Virus record (IMG/VR): IMGVR_UViG_3300037722_001090
Source of the DNA: a virus
Taxonomy: Duplodnaviria > Caudoviricetes
DNA length: 64,000 bases
Strand: one strand, 5' to 3'
Part shown: piece after piece, positions 1-53,973 of the stretch
Layout of the letters: every line of letters starts with the position of its first letter
Numbering within the stretch: position 1 is the first letter of the stretch
Program-made: the position numbers and the translations under genes
The notes under the pieces: generated by a model
What the model was told of the DNA's origin: nothing
The model's database searches: none
The model's input: the letters and a program-made list of their open reading frames with translations, nothing else

Positions 1-249
1 TTTAACGAATCCTCGTATCCAGAGTTTAGTTAGAATACCTGATTTACGCATAATTACATGAGCTGCCATCATGTTATACTCATACATGACAAACAACTTA
101 CGTAACATACGATACTCACGATGACTATAGATCCAATTAAAGAACACAAGTGCAAGAATAGCAAGTATGTTCCAGAACCAGAACTCGCTGAATATATGTA
201 AGTAAGGATTTATATATGCAACGGCTTTATCGAACCATTCTCTAAACAT
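1..249 (-). CDS. Hypothetical membrane protein, runs off the window edge (MFREWFDKAVAYINPYLHIFSEFWFWNILAILALVFFNW...)
   Basis: Hand-translated. ATG at 249 is preceded by AAGGAG; open to position 1; contains a hydrophobic helix. Confidence 0.7.
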   Translation of the reverse strand, partial: MFREWFDKAVAYINPYLHIFSEFWFWNILAILALVFFNWIYSHREYRMLRKLFVMYEYNMMAAHVIMRKSGILTKLWIRGFVK

Positions 250-258
250 GGCATCTCC

Positions 259-411
259 TTAAATAGTTATCCATCCAGCTGCTTGAGCTTTAGCACCCAA
301 GAAGGCAAAGACAGTTCCTTCAACAGTCAGGTGCAGTAAGTAACCGACAAGCACCCACATTGCCGTAGCAAGTTTGTGATGTCTGCGCATGAAGCGTCTG
401 AAGTTTTGCAT
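259..411 (-). CDS. Small hypothetical membrane protein, 50 aa (MQNFRRFMRRHHKLATAMWVLVGYLLHL...)
   Basis: Start re-assigned to ATG 411 (SD AGGAGG). The longer track ORF crosses a terminator. Confidence 0.75.
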   Translation of the reverse strand: MQNFRRFMRRHHKLATAMWVLVGYLLHLTVEGTVFAFLGAKAQAAGWITI

Positions 412-444
412 ATAGTGCCTCCTGCATAGGTTAAGGGACCATCG

Positions 445-453
445 AGAATAGCA
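445..453 (-). promoter_or_regulatory. Candidate extended -10 promoter element TGCTATTCT
   Basis: An identical 9-mer lies at 1085-1093. Both sit at the same offset (34 nt) from their start codons and resemble TGnTATAAT. Confidence 0.45.
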
Positions 454-459
454 AGTGAA

Positions 460-488
460 TAAAAAAATAGGGGACCCGAAGATCCCCC
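460..488 (-). terminator. Rho-independent terminator
   Basis: GGGGATC-TTCG-GGTCCCC hairpin followed by TATTTTTTT, just after the stop at 497. Confidence 0.85.
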
Positions 489-496
489 ATTCTTGT

Positions 497-1051
497 TTAC
501 TTCTGCAGCTTGGCCGCTTCTTCCGCCTGCTTGCGGAGCGCGAATGCCGAGAGGCCGCCTTCTTCGCCGGTACCAGCGGTGGTCGACTCATCTTCGAGCC
601 GGTTCGTGGTTTTGGCCTTGGGCTGCTTCAAACAGCTCAGGTCGATGTCTTCCGGGGCGATGAACGAGGGGAGCGTGGCAGCACTGCCTTTGAACCGATC
701 GAGCAGCGTGCATTTGCTGTACTCCTGATACTCCACGACGTATTCGCCGCCGGTAGCCGTTTCGCCCCGGTATTCGCCGTGTTTTTCCGACTTGAACGCG
801 AAGGCAATGCGGTCGCCCTCCAAAACCGACAGCCAGGCCTTGTCACGGGCATTTTCGAGCGATCCGTAGATCACGGCACGATTGCCCGAAGCCAGACCGA
901 CGTTGACGATGAAGTCACTGCCGGATTTTTCGTTCCCACGGAGATCTGTTTTGCTGATCCGGGCGACTTCTTCGTCCAGGACCAAACAGATTTTCCCACG
1001 CGCTCCGGAGAGCAACTCGGTGAGTTCTTTGGTGAACTGTTTCTTTTCCAT
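497..1051 (-). CDS. Hypothetical protein, 184 aa, beta-rich with acidic tail (possibly OB-fold/SSB-like)
   Basis: ATG 1051 with SD AAGGAG; markedly GC-rich codons; own terminator. The fold call is a guess. Confidence 0.75.
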   Translation of the reverse strand: MEKKQFTKELTELLSGARGKICLVLDEEVARISKTDLRGNEKSGSDFIVNVGLASGNRAVIYGSLENARDKAWLSVLEGDRIAFAFKSEKHGEYRGETATGGEYVVEYQEYSKCTLLDRFKGSAATLPSFIAPEDIDLSCLKQPKAKTTNRLEDESTTAGTGEEGGLSAFALRKQAEEAAKLQK

Positions 1052-1084
1052 AACGTACTCCTTCAAAAAGTGTAAAAAGGTTCA

Positions 1085-1174
1085 AGAATAGCACGTACTC
1101 ACACACCCATAGTGTAAGTCAGTAGCTCTTTTTTCTCATAGATAGCACAGGACACGCACTCTCGTAGATAGCAC
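1085..1174 (-). promoter_or_regulatory. Three tandem GTGCTAT motifs (candidate promoter/operator array)
   Basis: ATAGCAC at 1088, 1142 and 1168 (+ strand); CTC(A/G)TAGATAGCAC direct repeat at 1135-1148 and 1161-1174. Confidence 0.5.
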
Positions 1175-1340
1175 GAATCTACGCATACGTACACTGTATT
1201 AGATATATAGACCTTAGGCCCTTCGTGTGATACCAGGCCCGTCGTAAGTGTAGAAGCGTCAAGGCTTCAATAGCTATACTCTGCTTGCTGGCTCCAGGTC
1301 AACGGTGGAGCACCATACCGTACAGCTCGCATTATATAGC

Positions 1341-1375
1341 TAATAAAAAAAGGGAGCCCGTTAGGACCCCCTTTT
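1341..1375 (-). terminator. Rho-independent terminator
   Basis: GC-rich imperfect hairpin followed by TTTTTTTATTA on the minus strand. Confidence 0.75.
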
Positions 1376-1384
1376 AATTACATA

Positions 1385-1654
1385 CTAATACCTACGCCAA
1401 TAACAACCCTCACCTATTGATATTCCATGAGACGTTGGCCCACAATAATGACCATCAGTAATAGACGAAGCTCTACTCCCTGTAGGAAGAGGATCCTTAC
1501 CAACTAAGAACTTATTCATTCTTAGTCTACCAATCTCCTTATCAATAGCGTTCATTCTATTCTTCACCTTCTGTCTATCTTCTTTACTGATGGGACGACC
1601 AAGTCTTAATTCAAGATCAGCACTCTCCATAAACAACGCATCTACTCTGTGCAT
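1385..1654 (-). CDS. Hypothetical protein, 89 aa
   Basis: ORF track; follows the RNAP gene and ends before a terminator. Confidence 0.6.
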   Translation of the reverse strand: MHRVDALFMESADLELRLGRPISKEDRQKVKNRMNAIDKEIGRLRMNKFLVGKDPLPTGSRASSITDGHYCGPTSHGISIGEGCYWRRY

Positions 1655-1710
1655 GATATAAACCTTTCTAGGCAGTTTAACGACATGCCCAGGTCAGTAA
1701 GAGTTAACTA

Positions 1711-4700
1711 TTAGAGATCGCCTTCACCCTGAGCCATGATACGATCCATGTACTCAGTAGCCTCACGCTCGATACGTTTACGGATATTCTCCGCCACAGC
1801 AATCTCAACATCCTTAATGTACGGATTGTCAGGATTCACACGCTTAGCAAGAGGAATGATGAACTTATCCGCATCGAACAGCCAGAACAAGCTGCCAGGC
1901 TTACTGGTAATCTTATCCGCACCAGTATCCCTGTCCTGACCAGACCAAGTGCCGAAAGACTGAACACCAATCGACAACATGAGCTGCTCCTTAAACTCAT
2001 CCATGAAGAAGCGATAATCAGGCTTACCGAAATACTTCTTACAAGCAAACTCAGCAATGATATCAATGTAACCGCGATAATCATTGGCAAGTGCAGCCCA
2101 GGCAATACGACGAGCCCTCTTGTCCACAATGAGAGACTTGTCATCCTGCAGAATCCTGGAATGCAGAGAATACCCCTCAATGATGGTACCATAAAGATTA
2201 CCACCATTAATGAGCAGGCTAGTAGCATTCAATACGAACTGAGGAGTCCAAGGAAGCTCAGCTTTGAGCTGCCTGAATTCACTATGAAGTGCTACCTTCT
2301 TTGCCCATTCAGTACGACAAAGATTACGCATATCAGTACTGTCCGAATGACGAGTAGTACAACTCACATCACGCAGAACATTAAGGACATGGCGGTAAGG
2401 GTTATATTCACTGCACTTGATATCCTGCAACTTACGGATAATCGCCTTCATGCAAAGATGCGGAATACCCTTAACGCTACTGTTCCCTCCATCCTTACGG
2501 AGAGCGCAGTAATCCTGAGGAGCAGAACGCAGCGGCATAACACGGCCATTAACACCATAAAGGCGAGTAATGGTTGCTGCAGCATCTTCCTCAGCAGAAA
2601 TGTCATGATGCTTCATGCCATCAATTGCAAGCTGGACAATCTCACCCATATGCATGATCTGAGCAGGAGTGAGAGGAGTACCATTCCACCAATTCTCGAA
2701 GATGATCTGCCGAGACAGGTTATCCAGAGAGCCAGTATCAATAGCACTCTGAGCAATAGCCAAGTAAGCCCTATAGGTCTGAGTGACAAATGCTTCTTCA
2801 CTCATAAGGCCTTTGGCTTTAGCCTTCTTCTCCTTAACAGGAGGGAGAGGACGCTCAGTTACAGGGAATGCGATGTCAGGATGAGGGAATACAATACAAG
2901 TATCCCCATCGACATCACCGAACATAGTCCAGAGAGCCCTTGCGCTAAGCTCAATGCAATCCGTAGTACCATTCAACTTGTGATGATGAAACTCCATGAA
3001 GTTACCATCACCAACAACCGGATTACGACCAATGTTCCATTTAGTATCGGGCCCAAGAAGCTTCGTGAACTTCTTCTTGCTGGGACCGTTGAACATATAG
3101 ACCTTCTCATTAGTCTCCAGAAAATGCTTATACTCGAGCAGGTCAAGCTCTTCATTAACCTCCAAGTAGAAGGCCAAATCAGACAGCCGCACCTTATACA
3201 CATTCTGGATCAAGTAAGTCCAAATACGAGCCATCATAACAGTAATGCGACTCGTATACATAGGAACACGCCAATCACCAAGCTCTTCGTCATATTTAGT
3301 GAAGAGGAAAGCCTTAAGTGGCTCACTAATAGCATCGTCCATAGTGGCTTCAGCATCCGACTTCAAGATACTGAGATAGCCACTAGCCTTACCTGCCAAT
3401 GCATCAACTACGATCTGCGCATTAGGAATCGCAGTCTCCACAATACGAGACACAAGCTCACTGTCCAAACGAACAGACTGAACACCAAGCGACGACTTTC
3501 CATCACTAACCTTGATTGCAACAATACGCAATGCAGGTTTCTCAGGAGTAATGGGAATAAGCACGATATCACCATGCTTGAGCCGGCCCTTCTGCGTTTT
3601 AAAGTTACCAAGACCCATGATAGCATCCTGATCCTCAAGATTGAAGCCATACTCTTCAACCTTCTCCTCATACCTGTTCACATGAAACATACACTTGCCC
3701 TTGAAGCTAGGCATCACATCACCAACCTTGAATTGGTAGATAGAAGGATTGGTCACGGCCAACTCAGCCATTACCTTAACATCAGCCTCATCAAATACAT
3801 GATAGCTCCTCGCCTGAGCATTTCCGTTAACACGCTCCTCTTTAGGAGGCTTAGGCACAGTCACTTCCTTGCCAGCAGTAACTGCAGCATTATACTCCTC
3901 CATCTGCTTAGCAAACCTCTTAAGCTCACTGACAGGAGTGTACCACATGCTAAGACAAGTAAGCATGTTACCATCGTTAAGAGGGTGTCCGCCCCAACCA
4001 GTCATATGTTCGGTGCGAGGAGTGTGACCAACAATCTCATCATTAATAACGCGCACACGAAGATACTGAGCATTCTCCGTACTTGCGATCTGATAAGGAT
4101 TGGGCGTCATGAACGTACCAGTAGGCTTAAACGGATTGTCATGATTACGAGGATCGTCACCCATCAACTCTGTCCAATCCTCAAGATATGCCTTACCAAG
4201 CAAAGGTTCACTCTTCTTAGCATTACCAAGTACGTGCTTGGCTTCACTAGCGGCTACATCCTGCATACGCTTGAAGATCTTAACCCTGTTGTTAGAGTCG
4301 TGCTCTTCAATAGACATAGGGATAACCTTGCCTCCCTTGCACCACTCATAGAATGGCGAGTTCGAGGCAATCTCAATCATGGCATCAGTACCATTAATGA
4401 CAAAGTCCGTACCGATAACCACCTCCTTTTGTACCGGATCACCATGCTCATCAATGCCTGCTTGCGTTTCAGTGATCTCAATCACCGCACCAGTATAGAC
4501 AATGCCCTTAACTTTCTCAAGCGTAGGGCTAAGTCCATGCAACCTGATCTTCGGATCATTCTCCGAGACAGGGTTAACTGCACCACTATACTCTTTAGGC
4601 TTAGTGGCGATAAGGCTGAGCTTCCTGTTCTTCATGGCATCTCCCTTGTTGTGGGCCTCCAGTTTGTCTTTGAACAGTTGCACCTGCTCTTTAACGGTGC

Positions 4701-5322
4701 CCTGTTTGACGAAGGCCGAAATTTCAATCTCTTTGAATCCAGCCAATTTGAGAATCTGCTGGTCCGACTTACCCCTGATGAGTGCTTCGGTTGCGCGACG
4801 GGCCTTTCTTCCCTGAGCAACAAACATGTCCTGAATGATCCTGTTCATATCTGCCAATTTGTCATTGCGCTCCACCTTGGAACGGACATCTTTGAGCTGG
4901 AACTCATAAATAGAGTTAACCAACTCCATGCCTTCGAGCTTTCTGAACTCAGACCGATGCATACCGATCTTATAGGCAATGAGACGTAAGTCGTCATCGC
5001 CACCCTCTTTGTTGAGGATGTTGATCAGCGTGGTCTTGTTCTTGAACCCTTCCGGATCCTCGAATTCCTCAGGCAGCAGAGAACGGCTCATGAACTCATA
5101 AATCACGATGCGCAGACGATCAGCAGTTGCCGCATTGTACGTGGTGTACAAAGGAACGCCGAGGTCCTTCGCGATCTCCTTGAGGGCAGTGATACCCTTT
5201 TCATCAAGACCCTTCTTCTTGATGATGACTTTAATCTGCGTCTGGTTCATGTGTACCTCCTTGTGGTTAGATTTCTTGCCATTAACGCCATTGCCATTGG
5301 TGTTACCGTTGTGCTGTGTCAT
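1711..5322 (-). CDS. Single-subunit double-psi-beta-barrel RNA polymerase (YonO / QDE-1-RdRP-like), probably non-virion
   Basis: GRNPVV (R766) lies 37 aa before GDVDGD (D803; nt 2902-2916), matching the beta-prime R-x-P...DxDGD arrangement. YQFKVG...FKGKC resembles the cellular-RdRP Q-x-R-x-G...KG motif, and QLAIDGMKH follows. Start set at ATG 5322 (SD GGAGGT). Confidence 0.85.
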   Translation of the reverse strand: MTQHNGNTNGNGVNGKKSNHKEVHMNQTQIKVIIKKKGLDEKGITALKEIAKDLGVPLYTTYNAATADRLRIVIYEFMSRSLLPEEFEDPEGFKNKTTLINILNKEGGDDDLRLIAYKIGMHRSEFRKLEGMELVNSIYEFQLKDVRSKVERNDKLADMNRIIQDMFVAQGRKARRATEALIRGKSDQQILKLAGFKEIEISAFVKQGTVKEQVQLFKDKLEAHNKGDAMKNRKLSLIATKPKEYSGAVNPVSENDPKIRLHGLSPTLEKVKGIVYTGAVIEITETQAGIDEHGDPVQKEVVIGTDFVINGTDAMIEIASNSPFYEWCKGGKVIPMSIEEHDSNNRVKIFKRMQDVAASEAKHVLGNAKKSEPLLGKAYLEDWTELMGDDPRNHDNPFKPTGTFMTPNPYQIASTENAQYLRVRVINDEIVGHTPRTEHMTGWGGHPLNDGNMLTCLSMWYTPVSELKRFAKQMEEYNAAVTAGKEVTVPKPPKEERVNGNAQARSYHVFDEADVKVMAELAVTNPSIYQFKVGDVMPSFKGKCMFHVNRYEEKVEEYGFNLEDQDAIMGLGNFKTQKGRLKHGDIVLIPITPEKPALRIVAIKVSDGKSSLGVQSVRLDSELVSRIVETAIPNAQIVVDALAGKASGYLSILKSDAEATMDDAISEPLKAFLFTKYDEELGDWRVPMYTSRITVMMARIWTYLIQNVYKVRLSDLAFYLEVNEELDLLEYKHFLETNEKVYMFNGPSKKKFTKLLGPDTKWNIGRNPVVGDGNFMEFHHHKLNGTTDCIELSARALWTMFGDVDGDTCIVFPHPDIAFPVTERPLPPVKEKKAKAKGLMSEEAFVTQTYRAYLAIAQSAIDTGSLDNLSRQIIFENWWNGTPLTPAQIMHMGEIVQLAIDGMKHHDISAEEDAAATITRLYGVNGRVMPLRSAPQDYCALRKDGGNSSVKGIPHLCMKAIIRKLQDIKCSEYNPYRHVLNVLRDVSCTTRHSDSTDMRNLCRTEWAKKVALHSEFRQLKAELPWTPQFVLNATSLLINGGNLYGTIIEGYSLHSRILQDDKSLIVDKRARRIAWAALANDYRGYIDIIAEFACKKYFGKPDYRFFMDEFKEQLMLSIGVQSFGTWSGQDRDTGADKITSKPGSLFWLFDADKFIIPLAKRVNPDNPYIKDVEIAVAENIRKRIEREATEYMDRIMAQGEGDL

Positions 5323-5362
5323 AGACACCTCCAAAGAATGAATATGCGATATGCATACTACG

Positions 5363-5397
5363 TTAAAAAAAAGGGCAGACCCGAAGGCCCACCCTTT
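5363..5397 (-). terminator. Rho-independent terminator
   Basis: AGGGTGGGCC-TTCG-GGTCTGCCCT hairpin followed by a T run. Confidence 0.85.
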
Positions 5398-5401
5398 AAT
5401 T

Positions 5402-5617
5402 TTACTTCTTCAGCATTTGTCTTTGCAGATCAATACCGATCTGTGCTGCAAGATCGAAGTATTGGATCATCCTAGCATACCTATGCATATGCCTTTCATA
5501 TCCTTCCTTGTCGCCAATCTGAAGCGACAGCAATGCTGCTTCCAGATGAATCCTGGCATTCCTATGGTACCAGATGCCAATTCTAATGTACCGCCTCTTC
5601 TTCTTATGGTTCTTCAT
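5402..5617 (-). CDS. Basic hypothetical protein, 71 aa (MKNHKKKRRYIRIG...)
   Basis: Start re-assigned to ATG 5617 (SD AAGGAG); overlaps the upstream gene's stop. Confidence 0.7.
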   Translation of the reverse strand: MKNHKKKRRYIRIGIWYHRNARIHLEAALLSLQIGDKEGYERHMHRYARMIQYFDLAAQIGIDLQRQMLKK

Positions 5618-5867
5618 GACAAGCTCCTTTCTCTTCATCAAGGCGAGTATAAATCTCAATCACTGTCAATCTAGACTGACCAGTGATAGCCATAGCGTAC
5701 AATACACTATAGCCGTTTTCATAACACTGCTCCACACTCATTTGCATAAGACCTCCTTTCATAATGCGAATAAGCCCCTGACTACACTTAGGACACAGAT
5801 CGTCCGCGACATCATACGTATTAAGTTCCATCACACTATAACACGTACTGCAAACAAACTTAGCCAT
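5604..5867 (-). CDS. Zinc-ribbon protein, 87 aa (CSTC-x15-CPKC)
   Basis: ATG 5867 with SD AAAGGAG; two CxxC pairs. Confidence 0.7.
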   Translation of the reverse strand: MAKFVCSTCYSVMELNTYDVADDLCPKCSQGLIRIMKGGLMQMSVEQCYENGYSVLYAMAITGQSRLTVIEIYTRLDEEKGACHEEP

Positions 5868-5928
5868 CACACCACTCCTTTCTTCCCCTACACCCACTAT
5901 AAAACCTACACTTGTTTCTTTTGCACAT
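5860..5928 (-). CDS. Cys-rich micro-protein, 22 aa (MCKRNKCRFYSGCRGRKEWCDG)
   Basis: Hand-translated; SD AGGAGG; its end overlaps the next gene's start. Confidence 0.5.
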   Translation of the reverse strand: MCKRNKCRFYSGCRGRKEWCDG

Positions 5929-6030
5929 ACGCTTATTCCTCCTCTTCCTCTTCGTGGCAGCACTCACAGGTAAAGCCAGTAATCTCACCAATACACCAGT
6001 ATTTATCTTCTTCACACAGTTAGTTAATTG

Positions 6031-6174
6031 TTAGATCCAGCTGTTAAAGGTAGCAGTAGCAGCACTACTACCCATTTTAAGCGACAAGTAACGCACAGCT
6101 TGCACATTACTAATGGCTCCAGCTTTGAATAGCAACTGGACACGGAAGATACGACGGCCTGCATGCTTGCCCAT
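6031..6174 (-). CDS. Hypothetical protein, 47 aa (MGKHAGRRIFRVQLLFKAG...)
   Basis: Hand-translated; SD AAAGGAG; abuts the upstream ORF's stop. Confidence 0.65.
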   Translation of the reverse strand: MGKHAGRRIFRVQLLFKAGAISNVQAVRYLSLKMGSSAATATFNSWI

Positions 6175-6176
6175 AC

Positions 6177-6251
6177 TCACACTCCTTTCAGTTCAGGTAC
6201 AAATACAATAGCCATCCAGAACGACACCCACACTAATGCAACAATAGTCAT
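6177..6251 (-). CDS. Hydrophobic micro-peptide, 24 aa (MTIVALVWVSFWMAIVFVPELKGV)
   Basis: Hand-translated; SD AAGGAG; first ORF of its cassette. Confidence 0.55.
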   Translation of the reverse strand: MTIVALVWVSFWMAIVFVPELKGV

Positions 6252-6287
6252 GGCTCTTCTCCTTAGATATATGTGCATAATTGCACC

Positions 6288-6320
6288 TAATAAAAAAAGG
6301 GGCTAAAGAACAGCCCCTTT
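6288..6320 (-). terminator. Rho-independent terminator
   Basis: AGGGGCT...AGCCCCT hairpin followed by TTTTTTATTAGG. Confidence 0.85.
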
Positions 6321-6325
6321 AATTA

Positions 6326-6583
6326 CTACCCGATCATTCTAAGTCCTCTAGCGTGAGGAACAATCTTGACAGTCGCACTTTCATACTTGCCAAGGACCTC
6401 ATACAGCTCCTCCAGATGATCGAAATCACCCTTAAGAGTACGATTAATTACCTTTTTGCAAGCCCCATCCTTAGCAAGGCTTCTCCAAGAGGAAGTTATC
6501 CTTCTTTCCAGTTGCCCAATCTTCTGATCAAGGATATTGAGCTCGTCTTCAACAACCATTTTGTTCGCTGCGATAACCATCAT
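6326..6583 (-). CDS. Hypothetical helical protein, 85 aa
   Basis: ORF track; SD GGAGGT; flanked by terminators. Confidence 0.75.
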   Translation of the reverse strand: MMVIAANKMVVEDELNILDQKIGQLERRITSSWRSLAKDGACKKVINRTLKGDFDHLEELYEVLGKYESATVKIVPHARGLRMIG

Positions 6584-6630
6584 GTTACACCTCCAAGGAA
6601 TTTGATATCACCGATATGGCGATATACCTA

Positions 6631-6659
6631 TTAAAAAAAAAGGGACCCGAAGGCCCCTT
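6631..6659 (-). terminator. Rho-independent terminator
   Basis: AAGGGGCC-TTCG-GGTCCCTT hairpin followed by a T run. Confidence 0.85.
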
Positions 6660-6663
6660 GATT

Positions 6664-6861
6664 TTATATAACTCTTAGCATCATCACATAAGTGCCTCCA
6701 ATTACATTATAGTTTTTAATAACTATATTTACCTCTTCGCATAACTTTAATTCCCTTTTGACCTTTTCGCCTAATATAATACCATCATATTTAGCACCAA
6801 AATCTACAACAACATAAGCACCAGTCTGCACAACAACACCTCTCTTTACAGCACCTAACAT
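6664..6861 (-). CDS. Stand-alone S1-domain protein, 65 aa, resembling ribosomal protein bS1 domain 1
   Basis: GAVKRGVVV..YVVVDFGAKYDGII..ELKLCEEVNIVI aligns by eye with E. coli bS1 GSIVRGVVV..VVLVDAGLKSESAI..EIQVGDEVDVAL (recalled from memory). SD GGAGGT before ATG 6861. Confidence 0.7.
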   Translation of the reverse strand: MLGAVKRGVVVQTGAYVVVDFGAKYDGIILGEKVKRELKLCEEVNIVIKNYNVIGGTYVMMLRVI

Positions 6862-6918
6862 AACTACCTCCAAGTATAAGAATTAAACTTACGCACACAT
6901 ACTATATATGTACATATC

Positions 6919-6947
6919 TAATAAAAAAGGGCCTATTGTAGCGCCCC
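6919..6947 (-). terminator. Probable rho-independent terminator
   Basis: Weaker GGGGC...GCCC hairpin followed by TTTTTTATTAG. Confidence 0.6.
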
Positions 6948-6953
6948 ACATTA

Positions 6954-7097
6954 TTACTTGTACTGAGTATCGCGATAATGCTTCCAAGTACGAAGATCAT
7001 GATTATAATTATGATTTACGCGCAGACGACGCACACGCACTTGAAGTGCCTCTTTACGTAAATTCCAACCACCACATACTGGACAAGTATGAGCCAT
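6954..7097 (-). CDS. Basic hypothetical protein, 47 aa, with CPVC knuckle
   Basis: Hand-translated MAHTCPVCGGWNLRKEALQVRVRR...; SD AAGGAG; bounded by terminators. Confidence 0.7.
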   Translation of the reverse strand: MAHTCPVCGGWNLRKEALQVRVRRLRVNHNYNHDLRTWKHYRDTQYK

Positions 7098-7131
7098 AAT
7101 AGTTCTCCTTGTTATGGTACATTATTGTACC

Positions 7132-7162
7132 TAATAAAAAAGCGGGGCAATATGCACCCCGC
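7132..7162 (-). terminator. Rho-independent terminator
   Basis: GCGGGG(T)GCATATTGCCCCGC hairpin followed by TTTTTTATTAGG. Confidence 0.85.
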
Positions 7163-7176
7163 CTCTATATAACCCC

Positions 7177-7350
7177 CTATGCCATGCATCTACCAGCATA
7201 GAGCTGCATGAAGACATCTCTCGGCATGAGATCTCCGCCTATGTATGTGCCCATATCTTGCACTATGCATGCCTCAGGTAGGAAGGCCTCTGCAGCCTCC
7301 CTATCGCATCTCTCGATAGCTTCTTCAATGGACCTACAGATGATAGTCAT
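7177..7350 (-). CDS. Hypothetical protein, 57 aa (MTIICRSIEEAIERCD...)
   Basis: Hand-translated; SD AAAGGAG. Confidence 0.7.
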   Translation of the reverse strand: MTIICRSIEEAIERCDREAAEAFLPEACIVQDMGTYIGGDLMPRDVFMQLYAGRCMA

Positions 7351-7380
7351 GGTATCTCTCCTTTAGTTAATGGTTAATAG

Positions 7381-7491
7381 TTAGATATATAGGCATAGTG
7401 CGACAAGCACCATACCCACAACGAACGGGTACAACTCTTGGGCCATGATACGCCCCTTCCCAACCTTACTCTTACCCTGATACATACGCAT
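7381..7491 (-). CDS. Small protein, 36 aa, with C-terminal hydrophobic helix
   Basis: Hand-translated MRMYQGKSKVGKGRIMAQELYPFVVGMVLVALCLYI; SD GGAGGT. Confidence 0.6.
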   Translation of the reverse strand: MRMYQGKSKVGKGRIMAQELYPFVVGMVLVALCLYI

Positions 7492-7522
7492 AGTACACCT
7501 CCACTATATAGGCATGATTGCC

Positions 7523-7552
7523 TAATAAAAAAAACGGGGGTTATTAGCCCCC
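7523..7552 (-). terminator. Rho-independent terminator
   Basis: CGGGGGCTAATAACCCCCG hairpin followed by a T run and ATTAGG. Confidence 0.85.
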
Positions 7553-7575
7553 GCCTCTATATAAGCCCCTTAGTA

Positions 7576-7854
7576 CTACATGCTTATTAGGTTCTCGCGT
7601 AAACAGCCTAACCTACATGCTGCTTGATATAGTAATCCTCTATCTACAAGATCACTAACCTTCTCCAATTCAAACATACATCCAGTAATAGCCAGCTTAT
7701 ATACTGGTCTAATCTTAGTAGCACCACTTAAGGACACACAATACATGGTACTGTTATCGCCCTTATATGCACACCTACTGTGCCTATTAACCTCATCACT
7801 AAGAACAACAAACTCGCCTACTACATTGTCATATGTTACGCTCAACATTGTCAT
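7576..7854 (-). CDS. Hypothetical protein, 92 aa; first gene of the leftward arm
   Basis: ORF track; SD GGGAG; ends at a terminator. Confidence 0.7.
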   Translation of the reverse strand: MTMLSVTYDNVVGEFVVLSDEVNRHSRCAYKGDNSTMYCVSLSGATKIRPVYKLAITGCMFELEKVSDLVDRGLLYQAACRLGCLRENLISM

Positions 7855-7943
7855 GATGATTCTCCCTGTTAATTGTTAGAAGTCGACCCCGGGGTTGCAA
7901 ATAGTCCATACCGACCTACATCTATATACCTACAGTCCTTTAA

Positions 7944-8011
7944 TCACTCCAGCCCATTTCAATCTCATATCTAGGCTTTTTAGATCATCACTTCACTCCA
8001 GCCCATTTCAA
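7944..8011. repeat. Perfect 19-bp direct repeat TCACTCCAGCCCATTTCAA x2
   Basis: Copies at 7944-7962 and 7993-8011, in the divergent gap between the two arms. Confidence 0.85.
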
Positions 8012-8270
8012 ATCCACTATAGACTTAAGCTTTTTACTCCACTCCTTTACACGAAACCTTTAATAAGACTTTTCCTTATTAAAACTTTCCCCATATTCGA
8101 TGCCGGGGTCTGTGACAAAAATCTTTTCCATTTTCCCCTATACGTTTCCCTCATATAGGACCAAAGTCATTTTGATTTCATATTTGACCTTTCTAATATG
8201 CACACTTAGCCTATTTCCCTTATTAACATACTGTACATAGATATGTACTTATTTTTTTTAGGAGAACATA

Positions 8271-8912
8271 ATGTCAACATTATACAATGCAGCTACAAAT
8301 AAAATCCCATCTCTTACATCGCCAGAACTTCCAAAAGAAGAAGCACTTAACAGTGTAGGTCCTTGGAAGCAAATCAAGGTCGTAACATTGCAAGATAATG
8401 AACTATCTGTTTCAGGTGCAATTTTACCAGAGAAAGCTTCAGACTTAAAAATACATCTTAAATATGCAAACGATGGTAGCACTAATAATGTTTGGCCATA
8501 TCTAAAGATAAATGAAGGAGTTCCTGGAGATACTATTGAGATAGTAGACCCAAAACACTGGGATCAAATACGCTGTAGTGGATCTTTATGGGATCCAGCA
8601 GGCGTTAAGACAGCGTGGAGCCAGACATCTGATGAGCTTCTTCCATCAGATAATTTACAAGGATATGAAGTAGACATTATTGTTTCTGCTGAACTGGGAA
8701 GAATATACGTTCATGGATTCGGTACTTTATGGAAATATTTAGCAGGCGAATATATTCCATACAAAGTAAATATTTACGGAGAAGATTACGTCAATACCCT
8801 ATATCCTATTTCACTAGATAGTATTTCTAAGTTTGGTATATATAATTGGGAAAACTCAACAGTCAATCTGCATGCTTGTGAACAAATTTCTGCCTGGTAT
8901 AAACCACAATAA
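8271..8912 (+). CDS. Hypothetical beta-rich protein, 213 aa
   Basis: ORF track; SD AGGAG; own terminator. Confidence 0.8.
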   Translation: MSTLYNAATNKIPSLTSPELPKEEALNSVGPWKQIKVVTLQDNELSVSGAILPEKASDLKIHLKYANDGSTNNVWPYLKINEGVPGDTIEIVDPKHWDQIRCSGSLWDPAGVKTAWSQTSDELLPSDNLQGYEVDIIVSAELGRIYVHGFGTLWKYLAGEYIPYKVNIYGEDYVNTLYPISLDSISKFGIYNWENSTVNLHACEQISAWYKPQ

Positions 8913-48483: not shown

Positions 48484-51400
48484 ATGGCAAACAATCCATA
48501 CTATGAAGAAAATAGCGGCTTTGGTAGTGTATTAAAAGGTGCATCTTTTGCTGGCGCAGCTGGTGCATCTTATATGGCATATAAGAACCCTGAAGCTACT
48601 ACCCGTGTATTTAATCGTGTAGTTAATTCTGTTGCACCACTAAAAGCACCTGAGCTTAATCCATATCAAAGCAACATAGTTAGTGCTAGAGAGGCAATCT
48701 TCAGTACTATGGAAGCCAGAAATATACGTAGAGTAGCTTTAGATAAAGATATGCAAGCAAGAGCTTTACAGACAATCGGTAATGTAAATAACTGGGGTAC
48801 TGTAAGTGCTGTAGGTGCTGGTATAAAAGGTGGCAAATCTGATTCATTTAAAAGCCTAACTGATATTCTAGACATAGAAGGTAATGAAATAGGGACAAAA
48901 ATACATAACGCACTAGAGAAGAGATTTAATTCTAAAATCGATGCTCCTAAATTTAGTGGAACAAGAGGAACCTGGAAGATAGCAGGAGAAGATTTGTCTA
49001 TTGATTTCTCTAAAAAAGGACTAGATTCAGGACTAGGAAATTCATGGTTCAAGCGCGTTGGAGAGTCTTATTATGCTTCACCTTATCAGTCTAAAATGGC
49101 TAATCGTGGCGGAGGGAAGCTTGGATATGATGTAATGAGTCCAAATGAATTTGTATTAAATGTGCTACAAGAAGAAAATGCTGGGAGTGGAAGACTGGCA
49201 TATGTAGAGAGTCCTACTAAGTTTAGGAACGCATATGAAAAGGTAATAGGAGAGAAAGTTACTGGACTAAGTGGACATGACGATGCTGTTAAGTATGCTG
49301 TTCAGCAAGTACGTAAAGAAATAGAGTTAGGATCTAATGCTAGTGTTAGCAATGTAAGAACTATGCAAAAGGCTTTAAAGAAAGTATTTAATACAGATAC
49401 TATGTTTGTAGAAACTGACCCAGTAAAGCTTGGCTTATTTGGCAGTGAAGTTCGCGTAGAAGAATATTCTAGATATATACTTGGTAATACAGAACCTGAA
49501 TTTAAAGGTGTAGGTTCAAACCGCGTAGGCAGAAACATGAATAGTCTTACAGGAGGAAGCGTAAACATAGAAGGTAATGCACTTAAAGTAGCATATAATA
49601 TTCCTCATGATGCAAGAACTGATAGTTCTTTAATTAGGATTGTTAATGGTAGTGGCGCTACGTTGAAAAGTAAAAATGCTACATTTATGCAAAAAATGAT
49701 GTCTCTGTTTGGTGGATATAGGCTTGGACAAGATCCTTCATCTGAATTTGCATGGGCTGTTAGACCTACTGTTCTTCCTGTTATTGCGGAAGGAGATAAG
49801 TCTATGAAGGGTGCTTTATGGGCAGATGATAATACCGTTATTAGAAAAAATGGCACTCAGGGTATTTCTATGGGAAAGGAATATTTCAGAGGAACAGGAA
49901 CAAAAAGAATTGAAGCACACAGACTTGAAACATTAAGGCATATGTCTTTTATTGACGACACTAAGATTACTGAAGCTGCTGCTTCAAGCTCAGATTATGT
50001 AAAGGGTAAAATATATTCTCAGCAAAATAAAGGCATTTATAATATGACAATGGCTCTTAACCCGTTTTCTGAAGAGTCTATTCAAGTAAGTTCAGGTATG
50101 AGTAAGCATATGAAAGTTCTTATTCCAAAAACAGCTACTGTGGACACAATTGCACTTAAAGGAGAAGAATCGTATAGGAGGTCGCTACTTACACTAATGG
50201 ATGCAAACGGTGTATTAGATAAGGAATCATTTACTATAAAAGAAATAATGGAAAGTAAAGCTTTATCAGAAAGAGTTAGTACTGGTCAATCCAAAATTAA
50301 GATAGGAAGAGGGACATATCTAGGCAGAAAGAACATAGGTATGGAAATATCTAATGCTGAAGACTTTTACTCTACATTTGAAAGAGACGGAGAGATTATT
50401 AAAGCAAAAGTAGATATGTATATAGACAGTACAGACTTTAATCAAATGGTCGAATCAAATCAAAGAATGATGGGTGAAGGACATAAGCATGCAGGAGGAG
50501 TTAAATATATAGCTAAGGCCATGGATGACCCTGCTAAAGTTGCACTTACTGGTATAAGAGCCCGTGGAGCTTATGCAGTTGGCGATGACGGATTACTTAA
50601 TAGTTTATATGCAAGTGCAGGACTAGGTAATAAGCAAGAAGCTACTATTTCTCTTGGTATGTTTAAAAAAACATTCCCTAAGATTTCTAATAACAGCCTT
50701 CTTCTTGGTAAAGATTCACCTGAACTATTACACTTTACACAATCTGCACTTGGATGGCAATCCTTACAAAGTAGCATGGATATAACATTAAGTAAAAATG
50801 CCGCTGATCATTTTGTCGGTAAATACGTAAATGATGCATCAAAAGTATTAGGCAATCAAGATTATTATACTGGAAGAGGTGCATCTAAAAAGTTTAGCTT
50901 TAGTAAGGCTATGCGAGATGGAGCAATATCTTTTACTCAAAGAACAGAATCAGATGCTGCATTTGCACAGCAATATCAAGACACTGTACAGGTGCTTGGT
51001 ACTGCGCGAAGAGAATGGGGTAATAATCGTAAAGTTGCACACATAGAAAGCTTCTCTACGACTAATGCTAAAGATGCTGCTAAAGTTATAGATAATCAAA
51101 TTGAAGCAATAGACAATATGGGCAAGCTTGCAAAAGGTGAATATGCTGTAAGGCTATTTAATAAACAGGTAGATGCAAAAGAGCTTGGAGAACAAGCCTT
51201 AGTTAGGACAAGAGTATCACAAGGTAGTAGTGCTGGTCTTGGATCGACAAAAGCACTCACAATGGGTATTCTTGGAGGACTTCAACCTCAGGAACAAAAC
51301 TGGCTAGCTCTTGGTGGTGAATTTAATAAGATGCGTATTTCATGGAGAGATATGTATCACTTTACAGACAAGGCAGATATACTAAGAGATATTTCAGTTA

Positions 51401-53973
51401 GAAGCTTAACAGATGCAGATACTAGCGCAACTATGATTAAGCTAATGAGTGACTCTGCTGTAGGGCATAATGTTACTTCTGCTGTTAATGCATTTGAGAA
51501 GAAATATGGTAAAATTCCAAAACTAAAAAAGACAGAAGAGATTTTGGAAATGATAGGTGGTGATGCCGCTATGGTTCCAGGTGCTATTAGAGATCCTGAA
51601 TTCTTAGCAACAAAAAGCTTCTTAGGTAATAAAAAGAATGAGTTCGGTTTTATGGTCGAAATGGGTGAGCGTAATGTTTATATTCCAGGTAGAGATGTTT
51701 GGAAAGGATATGCAACTGATGAGGGGATGGCTACATTTGATTCTTTATTTGCAGAAACTCATAACTTACTTTTGAATAAAGCTCTAGGATCGAACATACA
51801 TCAAGATAGAGATGAGTACCAAAATTGGGTTAAAAGAATAATCAATGAAACAGGAAGCTCAAAAGAAGGACTACAAAGAACAATTTCATTATCTATTGAC
51901 CATGCAGTTGCTGCAAAACATATAGAAGATCCATCGTTTATTCATAATAAAATTATGATTGGTGCTATGGAGAGCTGGAAAGGTAATGCAGACAAGAAGT
52001 TAATTCCTGGATATGTAGCAAAAGCAGAAGCTCTAGAAAATACATTTGGTAATATAGCTAAAATCGGAGAAAAAGATTTTAGTTCAAGTATTAAACAGCT
52101 TATAACTGACACTAAGACAATAGCTAGTAGCCCTGGAAGCAGACAGACAATGCAAGAGGTTCTTACCTCACAATATGGTGAAGATCATTTTCTACAAAAG
52201 TATGCAAATAGGATGAGTGCAAACATGGACAAGGAAGGTGTAGCCAGTCTTGTTAAGGATATTACAACGGATCATGTTGCTAGTAGTAAGCTACTTATGA
52301 GCAAAATAAAAGAATATGCATCAACAGGGAATGAGTCTTTATTTGGAGAGATAGACACGCTTGTAGGAGGTGCACATAAGATTTTTGCCGTTAGACATCC
52401 TACACTTTATACTGGATCTTATTCAGGATTAATAGCTCTTATTGATAGTCAAATTGAAGGAACACAAAAAATAGCAATAGCACACAGAGCTAGTAAAAAT
52501 ATGGCGTCGGACTGGGACGGAGATACAATTAACTATGTTGACCTTAGATCTAAACTGGGAAGACAAAAAGCATTGAATCTTATTAATACGGATCAGAAAA
52601 TTGCATATGGTGTAATGAGTTCTAAAGTGCAAGACAGAATGACTGGAATTTTAACTGGCAAAGGAACTAATGCTCCATCCGAGGCCCTTGCTTTTTTTAA
52701 CTCACTAGACTCCCCTGCAGCACTAAATACAGTAGCTAAAAATATTTTACATGATGCTCCTGGCTCAACAGCTATTTCATCGTATTTTACTAAAGCAATG
52801 ACCGGTCAATTTAATATCTCTGCAATGGAAACAAAAAACTATATAAGAGATTTATCTGATAGTAAAAACTTATCACAAGAGCATATGAAAGAGCTAGGTC
52901 ACTACTTTGGAGTAATGGCATCTAAGAACTCTGAGCAGGAAGTAATCTCAGCTAAGCATGCAGAGACATGGCTTAAGAATATGAACAAAAGTGAAAGTAA
53001 GATGAACTATCTTACTAATTTAATAGGCGCTCAATCTGGACAAGAACAAATAGCGGAGTCTATTAGAGAGCTTGGATCAGTACATCCTATTGCTCAGATG
53101 GCAGCAATGAACGCCAAAGGTAAAGATAATGAGAAGTTTGCTGGTATGGTTTCTGACTTTATGGATTTTAAGGTAGGATGGAAACAGCTTGAGCAGCCAA
53201 GATTCGAAACTATGTGGGAAGGACTAGGTCTTGAAAAATCTCATGGAGTTAATACCTCAGCAGCTTGGGACATGTACGACTCTTGGTTAAAAGAAGGTGA
53301 ACATATTTTTGGTAATAAAATGGAATCTTCTGTTGCCGCTGGTATATCAGAACTCAGCTATTTAGAAGTTACTAAGCAGGCAATGTTTGATAAGAGATCT
53401 TCTGCAAGTGAAAGTATAGAGGCCATGTTTAGCCGTGCATTAGAGTTTATGAAAATGAGCGATAATGATAGGGCTGGAGATGCTGCAATGGGCGTATTAG
53501 ATAAGCTCGGATATAGGAAAACAGCACTACAGATGCTCACTTTACATGAGCAACAATCAAATATGGCACAAGCAACTCGCAAGATAGCTGGCTTTGATAC
53601 AGTATCTAAAGCAGCACAGTGGATGGTAGAAAAACCTGTTAGATTAGCTGGAGCTGTAGGTATTGGCTTATTAGGCATGACTGCAATTAACCTACTAAGC
53701 GGAGATGGTGGCCTTGAAGATCCAAATGATTTACCTAGTGTTAGTAATCCGGCATTTACAGGCGGTGGTGGAAATGGTATGATGAATACACATGGAGTCC
53801 AGCCACACGTAGGCGTAAACGCTAATGTAAACTTATTAACAGACAGTAACGATAATCCACAAAGTGCACTTAGTTACATTTCTAATATGTTTGGCTATAG
53901 TCAGGGCAGCGTTGTATCTGTTATGCATGATGGTGAAAACCCATACAAAAAAGATATGATGTATTATAATTGA
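48484..53973 (+). CDS. Putative virion-packaged RNA polymerase (double-psi-beta-barrel), 1829 aa
   Basis: VRHPTL (R1304) lies 39 aa before SDWDGD (D1343; nt 52510); hydrophobic Gly/Ala helices at both termini; embedded in the tail module. Confidence 0.75.
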   Translation: MANNPYYEENSGFGSVLKGASFAGAAGASYMAYKNPEATTRVFNRVVNSVAPLKAPELNPYQSNIVSAREAIFSTMEARNIRRVALDKDMQARALQTIGNVNNWGTVSAVGAGIKGGKSDSFKSLTDILDIEGNEIGTKIHNALEKRFNSKIDAPKFSGTRGTWKIAGEDLSIDFSKKGLDSGLGNSWFKRVGESYYASPYQSKMANRGGGKLGYDVMSPNEFVLNVLQEENAGSGRLAYVESPTKFRNAYEKVIGEKVTGLSGHDDAVKYAVQQVRKEIELGSNASVSNVRTMQKALKKVFNTDTMFVETDPVKLGLFGSEVRVEEYSRYILGNTEPEFKGVGSNRVGRNMNSLTGGSVNIEGNALKVAYNIPHDARTDSSLIRIVNGSGATLKSKNATFMQKMMSLFGGYRLGQDPSSEFAWAVRPTVLPVIAEGDKSMKGALWADDNTVIRKNGTQGISMGKEYFRGTGTKRIEAHRLETLRHMSFIDDTKITEAAASSSDYVKGKIYSQQNKGIYNMTMALNPFSEESIQVSSGMSKHMKVLIPKTATVDTIALKGEESYRRSLLTLMDANGVLDKESFTIKEIMESKALSERVSTGQSKIKIGRGTYLGRKNIGMEISNAEDFYSTFERDGEIIKAKVDMYIDSTDFNQMVESNQRMMGEGHKHAGGVKYIAKAMDDPAKVALTGIRARGAYAVGDDGLLNSLYASAGLGNKQEATISLGMFKKTFPKISNNSLLLGKDSPELLHFTQSALGWQSLQSSMDITLSKNAADHFVGKYVNDASKVLGNQDYYTGRGASKKFSFSKAMRDGAISFTQRTESDAAFAQQYQDTVQVLGTARREWGNNRKVAHIESFSTTNAKDAAKVIDNQIEAIDNMGKLAKGEYAVRLFNKQVDAKELGEQALVRTRVSQGSSAGLGSTKALTMGILGGLQPQEQNWLALGGEFNKMRISWRDMYHFTDKADILRDISVRSLTDADTSATMIKLMSDSAVGHNVTSAVNAFEKKYGKIPKLKKTEEILEMIGGDAAMVPGAIRDPEFLATKSFLGNKKNEFGFMVEMGERNVYIPGRDVWKGYATDEGMATFDSLFAETHNLLLNKALGSNIHQDRDEYQNWVKRIINETGSSKEGLQRTISLSIDHAVAAKHIEDPSFIHNKIMIGAMESWKGNADKKLIPGYVAKAEALENTFGNIAKIGEKDFSSSIKQLITDTKTIASSPGSRQTMQEVLTSQYGEDHFLQKYANRMSANMDKEGVASLVKDITTDHVASSKLLMSKIKEYASTGNESLFGEIDTLVGGAHKIFAVRHPTLYTGSYSGLIALIDSQIEGTQKIAIAHRASKNMASDWDGDTINYVDLRSKLGRQKALNLINTDQKIAYGVMSSKVQDRMTGILTGKGTNAPSEALAFFNSLDSPAALNTVAKNILHDAPGSTAISSYFTKAMTGQFNISAMETKNYIRDLSDSKNLSQEHMKELGHYFGVMASKNSEQEVISAKHAETWLKNMNKSESKMNYLTNLIGAQSGQEQIAESIRELGSVHPIAQMAAMNAKGKDNEKFAGMVSDFMDFKVGWKQLEQPRFETMWEGLGLEKSHGVNTSAAWDMYDSWLKEGEHIFGNKMESSVAAGISELSYLEVTKQAMFDKRSSASESIEAMFSRALEFMKMSDNDRAGDAAMGVLDKLGYRKTALQMLTLHEQQSNMAQATRKIAGFDTVSKAAQWMVEKPVRLAGAVGIGLLGMTAINLLSGDGGLEDPNDLPSVSNPAFTGGGGNGMMNTHGVQPHVGVNANVNLLTDSNDNPQSALSYISNMFGYSQGSVVSVMHDGENPYKKDMMYYN

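Follow-up and report, generated by a model that had tools for sequence, protein, structure and literature searches.

An uncultured phage of the Caudoviricetes (Duplodnaviria), deposited as IMG/VR record IMGVR_UViG_3300037722_001090, carries in one of its gene arms a series of short cassettes, in which a terminator, a T-rich motif ending in ATTAG, a small hairpin and a ribosome-binding site follow one another. The analysis described here covers a stretch of 64,000 nts of this phage, hereafter the window. With about even confidence, these cassettes are interpreted as fused terminator-promoter junctions for a phage two-barrel RNA polymerase (RNAP), from which transcripts would start at an invariant G and carry a protecting or insulating hairpin at their 5′ end.

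In such a mechanism, stop and start signals would be joined within the first-expressed (“pre-early”) gene block. The GC-rich stem and the 6 to 9 Ts that follow it, both of which are observed, would end the upstream transcript, and the same T-run together with ATTA would form a short T-rich promoter for a sigma-less two-barrel phage RNAP, most likely the 1829-aa enzyme, whose gene lies among the tail genes and which is presumably injected. Starting at the invariant G of ATT(A)G, the new RNA would open with a hairpin of 4-10 bp and almost no unpaired 5′ nucleotide, followed by an open segment of 2-18 nts, the Shine-Dalgarno (SD) sequence GGAG(G) and the start codon. The hairpin would act at the RNA level as a 5′-terminal protective and insulating stem-loop. 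The block would end past the gene of a second, non-virion RNAP, beyond which another motif, TGCTATTCT, would take over.

Anatomy and conservation of the cassettes

The window corresponds, in reverse complement, to positions 37160-101159 of one virus contig of 107,910 bp (36% GC), the completeness of which is estimated at 52% by CheckV. Minus-strand genes occupy positions from about 7860 to 1 and extend past the window end. Plus-strand genes begin at 8271 and include the portal gene and three giant open reading frames (ORFs) of 1963, 1829 and 2471 aa. The cassette block forms the head of the minus-strand arm, directly past the divergent junction, and comprises the following elements.

7489-7558, minus strand: cassette c1; terminator 7558-7530, T8 7534-7527, ATTAG 7526-7522, hairpin TAGGCA-ATCA-TGCCTA 7524-7509, GGAGG 7502-7498, ATG 7491
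7095-7164, minus strand: cassette c2; terminator, T6 7141-7136, ATTAG 7135-7131, hairpin GGTACA-ATAA-TGTACC 7131-7116, AAGGAG, ATG 7097
6859-6947, minus strand: cassette c3; terminator, T6 6928-6923, ATTAG 6922-6918, palindrome ATATGTACATAT 6917-6906, GGAGG, ATG 6861
6581-6659, minus strand: cassette c4; terminator 6659-6640, T9 6641-6633, AATAG 6632-6628, hairpin ATATCGCC-ATATC-GGTGATAT 6625-6605 (one sense-strand G.T), GGAGG, ATG 6583
6249-6320, minus strand: cassette c5; terminator 6320-6296, T7 6298-6292, ATTAG 6291-6287, hairpin GTGCA-ATTA-TGCAC 6286-6273, AAGGAG, ATG 6251
5320-5397, minus strand: cassette c6, immediately ahead of the RNA polymerase gene; terminator 5397-5370, T8 5372-5365, AACGTAG 5364-5358, hairpin (AG)TATGC-ATATC-GCATA(TT) 5359-5341, GGAGG 5332-5328, ATG 5322
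1340-1375, minus strand: cassette c7; terminator 1375-1348, T7, ATTAG 1344-1340, no tight hairpin, and a non-coding stretch of about 280 nts in place of the ribosome-binding site
409-489, minus strand: cassette c8; terminator, T7 467-461, ATTCAC, second motif TGCTATTCT 453-445, GGAGG, ATG 411

A terminator scan recovered the eight minus-strand terminators that a sequence-only reading of the window had listed; these strong terminators span 467-7558, with T-runs starting at 7534, 7141, 6928, 6641, 6298, 5372, 1351 and 467. Extended to the same strand of the whole contig, the scan gave 16 candidates, nine of which are these eight and one further terminator downstream, outside the window, and these rank among the strongest. 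The few terminators of the plus-strand arm found in the contig scan all lack ATTAG. The T-run is followed by TTATTAG in 5 of the 8 cases and by TTAATAG, AACGTAG and ATTCAC in one case each. Seven copies of the T-run-AT(T)AG type lie between 7534 and 1340. The exact 11-mer TTTTTTATTAG is present five times in the 107.9-kb contig, and all five copies are inside this block and on the same strand.

The six inverted repeats that the same reading had described (7522-7511, 7131-7116, 6286-6273, 6917-6906, 6624-6606 and 5357-5343, all on the minus strand) were located at those positions and begin 0-3 nts after the T-run and ATTAG. Beyond its palindrome, c3 could also form a longer, G.U-rich RNA stem. 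A perfect stem of at least 5 bp beginning no more than 4 nts after TAG occurs in 3/7 cassettes, or 4/7 if one G.T pair is allowed, compared with about 3% of random or shuffled 24-mers; hence, hairpins after TAG exceed chance. Two conserved loop classes had been proposed, and these hold within the window (ATCA, ATAA and ATTA for one, ATATC twice for the other) but are looser in related phages, where ATGA, TTAA, ATGT, CTTA, ATGTC, AATATC and TGT are also found.

The relatives are metagenome contigs encoding homologues of the 1207-aa ORF of the early polymerase that lies behind c6. Identity of this protein is 37-44% by alignment (40-45% by search) for L001, L003, L014 and L015, about 27-34% for L016 and L018, and 26% for L019. 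In all seven, T(6-9)ATT(A)G directly follows terminators upstream of the polymerase gene, with a small hairpin and GGAG(G) after it. Four such cassettes are present in L014 and align with those of the window, and the orthologous counterpart of c6 lies at 2654-2707 of L001. In the record behind L019 (G001), the exact TTTTTTATTAG is present in three copies, all three upstream of the polymerase gene. The unit of motif and hairpin can exist without a terminator, since L001 carries TTTATTGTAG and an 8-bp stem at 1263-1296 with no terminator in front. The small proteins flanking the cassettes are mostly not homologous between phages (3 of 13 have any BLASTP match, window versus L014 or L001), whereas the cassettes align, so that the cassettes are better conserved than the genes they flank. 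This suggests that they may double as gene-exchange joints, by analogy with the promoter early stem-loop elements (PeSLs) of T4-type phages.

The signal T(6-9)ATTAG, kept across an uncultured phage clade with a new early two-barrel polymerase family, is new, as is the covarying, strand-specific leader hairpin that begins at its invariant G. A search for related loci in viral contigs with the single protein gave none, and a profile scan of metagenome contigs returned 141 pattern matches and no relative. The pattern GTAGTATGCA-N-TATCGC matched viral contigs ten times, always within coding sequence and without a terminator, and these matches were judged to be chance. No match was obtained among 50,697 phage records for window 5300-8200 (blastn) or for the early polymerase (tblastn), and an Rfam scan of window 1-8400 gave no match.

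Three side observations concern the same DNA. A box, GGGG-(C/G)-TTATATAGAGGCGGGG, overlaps the terminator 5′ arm of c1 (7562-7540) and c2 (7176-7157) on the minus strand, and the same GGGG-N-TTATATAGAGGCGGGG box is kept in the matching cassettes L014a and L014b (404-430 and 680-705). The phage is contained in 19 DNA sequencing datasets from sediment and soil, and there is no RNA dataset among those listed. The window and the contig record differ by one base at window position 50635 (reverse-complemented index 13366, genome about 50525).

Covariation, strand and position of the leader hairpin

In five related phages (early polymerase 26-45% identical), the letters of the T-run-ATT(A)G are almost unchanged. 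In matching cassettes of the window and its relatives, the terminator and ATTAG are kept and the stems are exchanged for different complementary sequences. For example, GGTACA/TGTACC of c2 corresponds to TAGGGG/TCCCTA of L014b, and ATAT/ATAT of c3 to AGGGTA/TGCCCT of L014c. An ordinary MAFFT alignment misplaced the 3′ arms, so that RNAalifold recovered just three pairs from it, and it was replaced by apex-anchored alignments of equal length, one for the class with a 4-nt loop (A3, 8 sequences) and one for the class with an ATRTC loop (A4, 3 sequences). In A3, both sides changed in 7 of 8 pairs, and the observed values were reached by 0-1 of 500 shuffles. In A4, 95.8% of cells are paired and five pairs changed on both sides. 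Shifting the 3′ partner abolishes pairing in both alignments. The sequence-only reading had proposed looking for stem covariation across related phages, and it is present; as judged from these alignments, the hairpin is under selection as a structure.

The strand on which this structure forms can be read from its imperfect pairs. In a search of 14 cassettes that admitted both kinds equally, the non-canonical pairs inside stems were nine G.T and no A.C on the sense strand. Summed RNA folding energies are -137.8 kcal/mol for the sense and -107.4 kcal/mol for the antisense strand, and every imperfect stem folds better as the sense strand. Because the non-canonical pairs are all sense-strand G.T, the structure forms in RNA or in the non-template strand of the DNA. 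Neither a double-stranded palindromic operator nor a template-strand hairpin would give such a bias, which argues against both.

The hairpin is also fixed in position. With the invariant G as the assumed first nucleotide of the RNA, 15/19 cassettes have a minimum-energy stem that starts at nt 0-1, with a mean z of -2.9 relative to shuffles, and the G, often the AG, of the conserved motif is usually part of the stem. The distance from stem to SD varies from 2 to 18 nts (median 9), and GGAG is never inside the stem. Hence, the hairpin keeps its position with respect to the upstream motif, not the ribosome site. The stems, of 4-10 bp, have no common sequence, the loops are of 4-6 nts and AT-rich, and the leader as a whole measures 20-50 nts with the hairpin and GGAG(G). 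Between a structure-based promoter and a conserved 5′ mRNA hairpin, the two possibilities raised from the sequence, the covariation, the G.T bias and the position at the invariant G all favour the latter.

Two other ways of reading this interval were rejected. The ATG within most hairpins was rejected as a mini-ORF start, as it derives from the CA/TG closing pairs and does not keep a consistent frame. The TATATAG and ATAAC boxes that lie between the hairpin and the SD were discarded as -10 elements, because a start 7 nts further on would delete the SD.

Two candidate phage polymerases and the readings of the cassettes

The window encodes two candidate RNAPs.

1711-5322, minus strand: early single-chain two-barrel RNA polymerase, candidate non-virion RNAP; catalytic motif GDVDGDT; fold model and Foldseek
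48484-53973, plus strand: 1829-aa tail-module protein, candidate virion RNA polymerase; beta-prime-type signature VRHPTL ... SDWDGDT

The early ORF of 1207 aa extends over 1711-5334, and its GGAGG-preceded start is the ATG at 5322. It gave no Pfam, PHROG or PDB sequence match. A model of its residues 301-1207 (pLDDT 86.6, pTM 0.82) was matched by Foldseek to QDE-1 (2.6e-10) and to gp64 of phage P23-45 (8F72, 8.6e-08), with further matches to RDR2, P74-26 gp62 (8F5M) and the crAss phi14:2 virion RNAP (6VR4). D807, D809, G810 and D811 are invariant in nine homologues, and the modelled protein is predicted to fold as a two-barrel RNA polymerase. An hhalign comparison of the early family with gp64 and with the 1829-aa ORF aligned the catalytic motifs without reaching significance. 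For the giant ORFs, no match to a T7-like RNAP was found in Pfam or PHROG; PDB sequence searches with the 1207-, 1829- and 1963-aa proteins gave none, and an ESM Atlas look-up of the 1829-aa protein gave no usable match. A 1784-aa homologue of the tail-module protein is encoded alongside a homologue of the early enzyme in G002 (= L020, an IMG/VR record of 115.9 kb).

Phage P23-45 is the closest studied system. Its virion RNAP, gp96, is a fusion with the tape measure and serves a 9-kb pre-early block that includes the gene of the non-virion RNAP gp64 (PMC10770324). The virion enzyme starts at 14 sites that share an AT-rich motif, in the source data TTATTCCTTT followed by A or G and repeated 14 or more times in the block; the motif of the non-virion enzyme is another one and GC-rich (PMC10770324). 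Several copies of the motif in the P23-45 family directly follow a terminator stem, e.g., a GGGGG/CCCCC stem and then TTTTTTATTCTTTTG in a related phage (PMC10770324). Scanning of the P23-45 genome (L023) placed the motif ahead of almost all genes between 41.8 and 32.6 kb, adjoining the divergent junction. Inspection of its minus strand indicated that the final A of the motif TTATTCCTTTA is the A of ATG in most pre-early genes, so that the P23-45 pre-early mRNAs are leaderless. Shortly after gene 64, at 35272, one P23-45 copy precedes a very stable 13-bp stem of -24.7 kcal/mol.

The present phage resembles P23-45 in its divergent junction, its block of small genes with a T-rich, purine-ending motif fused to terminators, the two-barrel RNAP gene inside this block and the later switch of motif. 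As in P23-45, there is an early two-barrel enzyme (here from a fold model) as well as a tail-module enzyme (here from a sequence signature). The differences are that the motif is T(6-9)ATTA-G here and TTATTCCTTT-A there, with TTATTCCTTTA not matched, that a hairpin and SD leader replace leaderless starts, and that the tail-gene polymerase is a separate 1829-aa ORF instead of a fusion to the tape measure. Moreover, start sites and polymerase occupancy were measured in P23-45, whereas the cassettes are known from their sequence. By analogy, the promoter is probably the linear T-run-ATTAG motif, as in P23-45, rather than the hairpin.

Several points weigh against reading the cassettes as promoters of a phage RNAP. 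We infer promoter function, the start site, the reading polymerase and the role of the hairpin from anatomy and comparison, and the reader could be either phage polymerase or the host enzyme, the tail-module enzyme being probably the likeliest. The 1829-aa protein is itself a candidate RNAP by its signature. The motif has just TTATT in common with the P23-45 promoter, and the leaderless transcripts of P23-45 offer no precedent for a hairpin. In several cassettes (c1, L014b and L003), the stem reaches into the TA of TAG or into ATTG, which requires either a start 1-4 nts more upstream or a chance extension. Co-occurrence of the motif and the tail-module polymerase is also imperfect in the records compared, which are 44-56% complete. 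G001 carries the motif and a tail-module homologue was not found in it (44% complete), and G002 has both polymerases and no exact TTTTTTATTAG, with scattered one-mismatch matches only. In G002, the polymerase gene lies in a tight operon without terminator cassettes. Since this record has the polymerases without TTTTTTATTAG or cassettes, the clade would use more than one promoter solution.

The strongest rival, which is nonetheless improbable, is processing. Polycistronic read-through RNA from a promoter at the junction (7855-8270) would be cut by a host or phage endoribonuclease in the single-stranded U-run-AUUAG between the hairpins, leaving the terminator stem to guard the upstream 3′ end and the small hairpin to guard the downstream 5′ end, an arrangement that we rate equally low. 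Every cassette indeed has an AU-rich single-stranded segment between two stems, a sense-strand hairpin at a fixed boundary suits processed and primary ends alike, and a repeat-bearing non-coding junction lies upstream of the first gene. However, eight consecutive strong terminators with GC-rich stems and 6-9 Us would leave little read-through to the polymerase gene, one L001 motif and hairpin has no terminator, and in P23-45, the closest system studied, there are many separate promoters, several of which adjoin terminators.

Slightly less probable is a promoter assisted by structure in the DNA. The inverted repeat, at about +1 to +16, would fold on the non-template strand when melted or supercoiled and keep the bubble open, with the template strand free for a sigma-less polymerase. 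The exclusive G.T bias (9:0) favours the sense, or non-template, strand over a template hairpin, as this model needs; the stems adjoin the invariant motif and not the ribosome-binding site, and the phage polymerases have no recognisable sigma partner. Nevertheless, stabilities with DNA parameters are small (about -2 to -6 kcal/mol), some stems have 4 bp, such a promoter is without precedent among two-barrel phage polymerases, and an RNA hairpin accounts for the same data without extra assumptions.

Two further proposals are each unlikely to a similar degree. In the first, the leader hairpins are RNA operators bound by a phage protein, either for translational shut-off of pre-early mRNAs or for a nut-like antitermination. 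Variable stems with a partly kept apex (CAAT-N-ATG in 5/19 and ATRTC in 4/19 cassettes) follow the pattern of protein-recognised RNA hairpins. Against this, the loops differ between relatives, no candidate for the binding protein emerged, and a variable spacing to the SD with a fixed spacing to ATTAG is the reverse of what a translational operator needs. The second proposal is stop-start transcription, in which a few injected, possibly tail-tethered polymerases would enter at 7855-8270, release the RNA at each hairpin-U-run and restart on the DNA 5 nts further on, at the G. As unlikely as this is an added role for the new 5′ hairpin, in helping to peel the nascent RNA off the template. Junctions of this kind, with a U7 tract between genes, are known from non-segmented negative-strand RNA viruses, of which the cassettes would be the DNA-phage counterpart. 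If true, stop-start transcription would account for the fusion of stop and start signals and for their conservation as a unit.

Host sigma-70-type promoters are very improbable. The T-run would be an UP element, a -10-like hexamer (TACAAT, TGCAAT or TATAAT) would lie in or near the repeat, and the palindrome would be incidental or a repressor site. AAT-ending hexamers do lie 1-5 nts past TAG in several cassettes, and c2 offers one 9/12 match (TTGCCC-18-AATAAT). On the other hand, a scan for sigma-70-like promoters gave 31 sites against 32.5 expected from shuffled sequence, with no -35, in line with the earlier remark that no clear -35 is evident. Furthermore, the hexamers differ between cassettes, the motif is kept across phages probably of different hosts, and a double-stranded operator predicts a common half-site and no G.T bias, whereas the stems share no sequence.

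The least credible rival is an N4-type promoter, a template-strand DNA hairpin upstream of the start that an injected polymerase would recognise, which corresponds to the first of the two possibilities raised by the sequence-only reading. In N4, the hairpin has a 5-7 bp stem and a 3-nt loop within a conserved GC-rich heptamer centred at -11, it is read by a T7-like enzyme, and there are three early promoters only, P1-P3, at the genome end (PMC4496689). The likeness lies in a variable-stem inverted repeat before each early gene and in a polymerase that N4 injects and that this phage probably injects. The proposal nonetheless fails on the opposite strand signature, on the AT-rich loops of 4-6 nts, on polymerases of the two-barrel class and on a set of cassettes that is not just three promoters at a genome end; in addition, with a stem-SD gap of 2-18 nts, a start about 5 nts behind the stem would leave almost no leader.

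The second motif, neighbouring elements and significance

Directly past the polymerase operon, a second motif, TGCTAT(T/C)(T/C)T, begins to appear.

1085-1173, minus strand: second motif, three tandem copies ahead of a 184-aa gene; TGCTATCTA 1173-1165 and 1147-1139, TGCTATTCT 1093-1085
7855-8270, minus strand: non-coding divergent junction that precedes the block's first gene; candidate entry promoter

Further copies of the second motif lie at 453-445 and 163-155 on the minus strand, and four are downstream of the window (genome 103109-105512). Where a gene follows, the motif stands about 33-38 nts before the start codon. Equivalents in the same arrangement are present in L014 (GTGCTAATCTTGA) and L001. 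The copy in c8 is of a different promoter-like class from the cassette motif, and the tandem copies are candidate promoters of the next temporal class. The second motif resembles an extended -10 (TGn-TATTCT), and because of this likeness its reader could be either the host enzyme or the early polymerase of the phage.

The divergent junction may hold an entry promoter or genome-end signals. It contains ATTAAAG at 7944-7938, ATTAG at about 8197-8193 with a bulged stem after it, and two copies of a repeat of about 20 nts (GAAATGGGCTGGAGTGA). A leader box, TGCAACCCCGGGG, precedes the first gene of the block and is also found in L014 1-77, a leader similar to the junction (AATAG-GACTGTA ... TGCAACCCCGGG).

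Two other non-coding elements are conserved. The stretch of about 280 nts after c7 (window 1067-1340, minus strand) has a TATGACGG box in common with relatives and counterparts at L014 7095-7467, L001 7040-7380 and L018 4254-4705, as well as in L015 and L003, and may be a structured RNA. The element GACCTGGGCATGTC-N-TTAAACTGCC lies between the stop codon of the polymerase gene and the gene that follows (window about 1700-1660, minus strand) and forms a stem, GGGCA/TGCCC, which is GAGCA/TGCTC in L018, a compensatory change, and unchanged in L016. From its location and conservation, it may be a translational control site for an 89-aa gene.

Arrays of early promoter-terminator cassettes are known from P23-45, from the early regions of AR9 and phiKZ, and from T4-type phages as PeSLs. 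To our knowledge, promoters of sigma-less two-barrel phage RNAPs have been described for very few systems (P23-45, and the multisubunit enzymes of AR9 and phiKZ) and for none in this mesophilic sediment clade.

Comparable composite elements are the PeSLs of T4-type phages, in which an intergenic terminator stem-loop (often GGGG...CCCC), an AT-rich tract, a promoter and an SD flank small orphan genes (PMC2839356). The cassettes are similar in that a composite terminator and promoter element is conserved between phages and the genes between are not. They differ in having no host sigma-70 -35/-10 boxes above the shuffled level and in a second small, covarying hairpin after the start signal, where the PeSL has a single stem-loop, the terminator. 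For the proposed role of the hairpin, the leaders of ompA and papA provide a parallel, as their 5′-terminal stem-loop is described as stabilising the mRNA (Emory et al. 1992, as cited in PMC3997798), and RppH-type enzymes require at least two unpaired 5′ nucleotides (PMC3997798). As in these stabilisers, structure and not sequence is kept and the SD is free. If the RNA starts at the G, the stem would lie about 0-2 nts from the 5′ end in 15/19 cassettes, compared with at most 1-2 nts in the stabilisers; unlike them, the stems are short (4-10 bp) and the position of the 5′ end is deduced from the motif.

If the interpretation as fused terminator-promoter junctions is true, the two-polymerase programme of P23-45 would extend to large uncultured contractile-tailed phages, in a leadered version with an RNA hairpin. 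The cassettes predict a T-rich signal of 11-14 nts, a defined start at G and a 5′ hairpin tolerant of compensatory stem changes, and would then constitute compact, host-independent terminator-promoter-leader modules.

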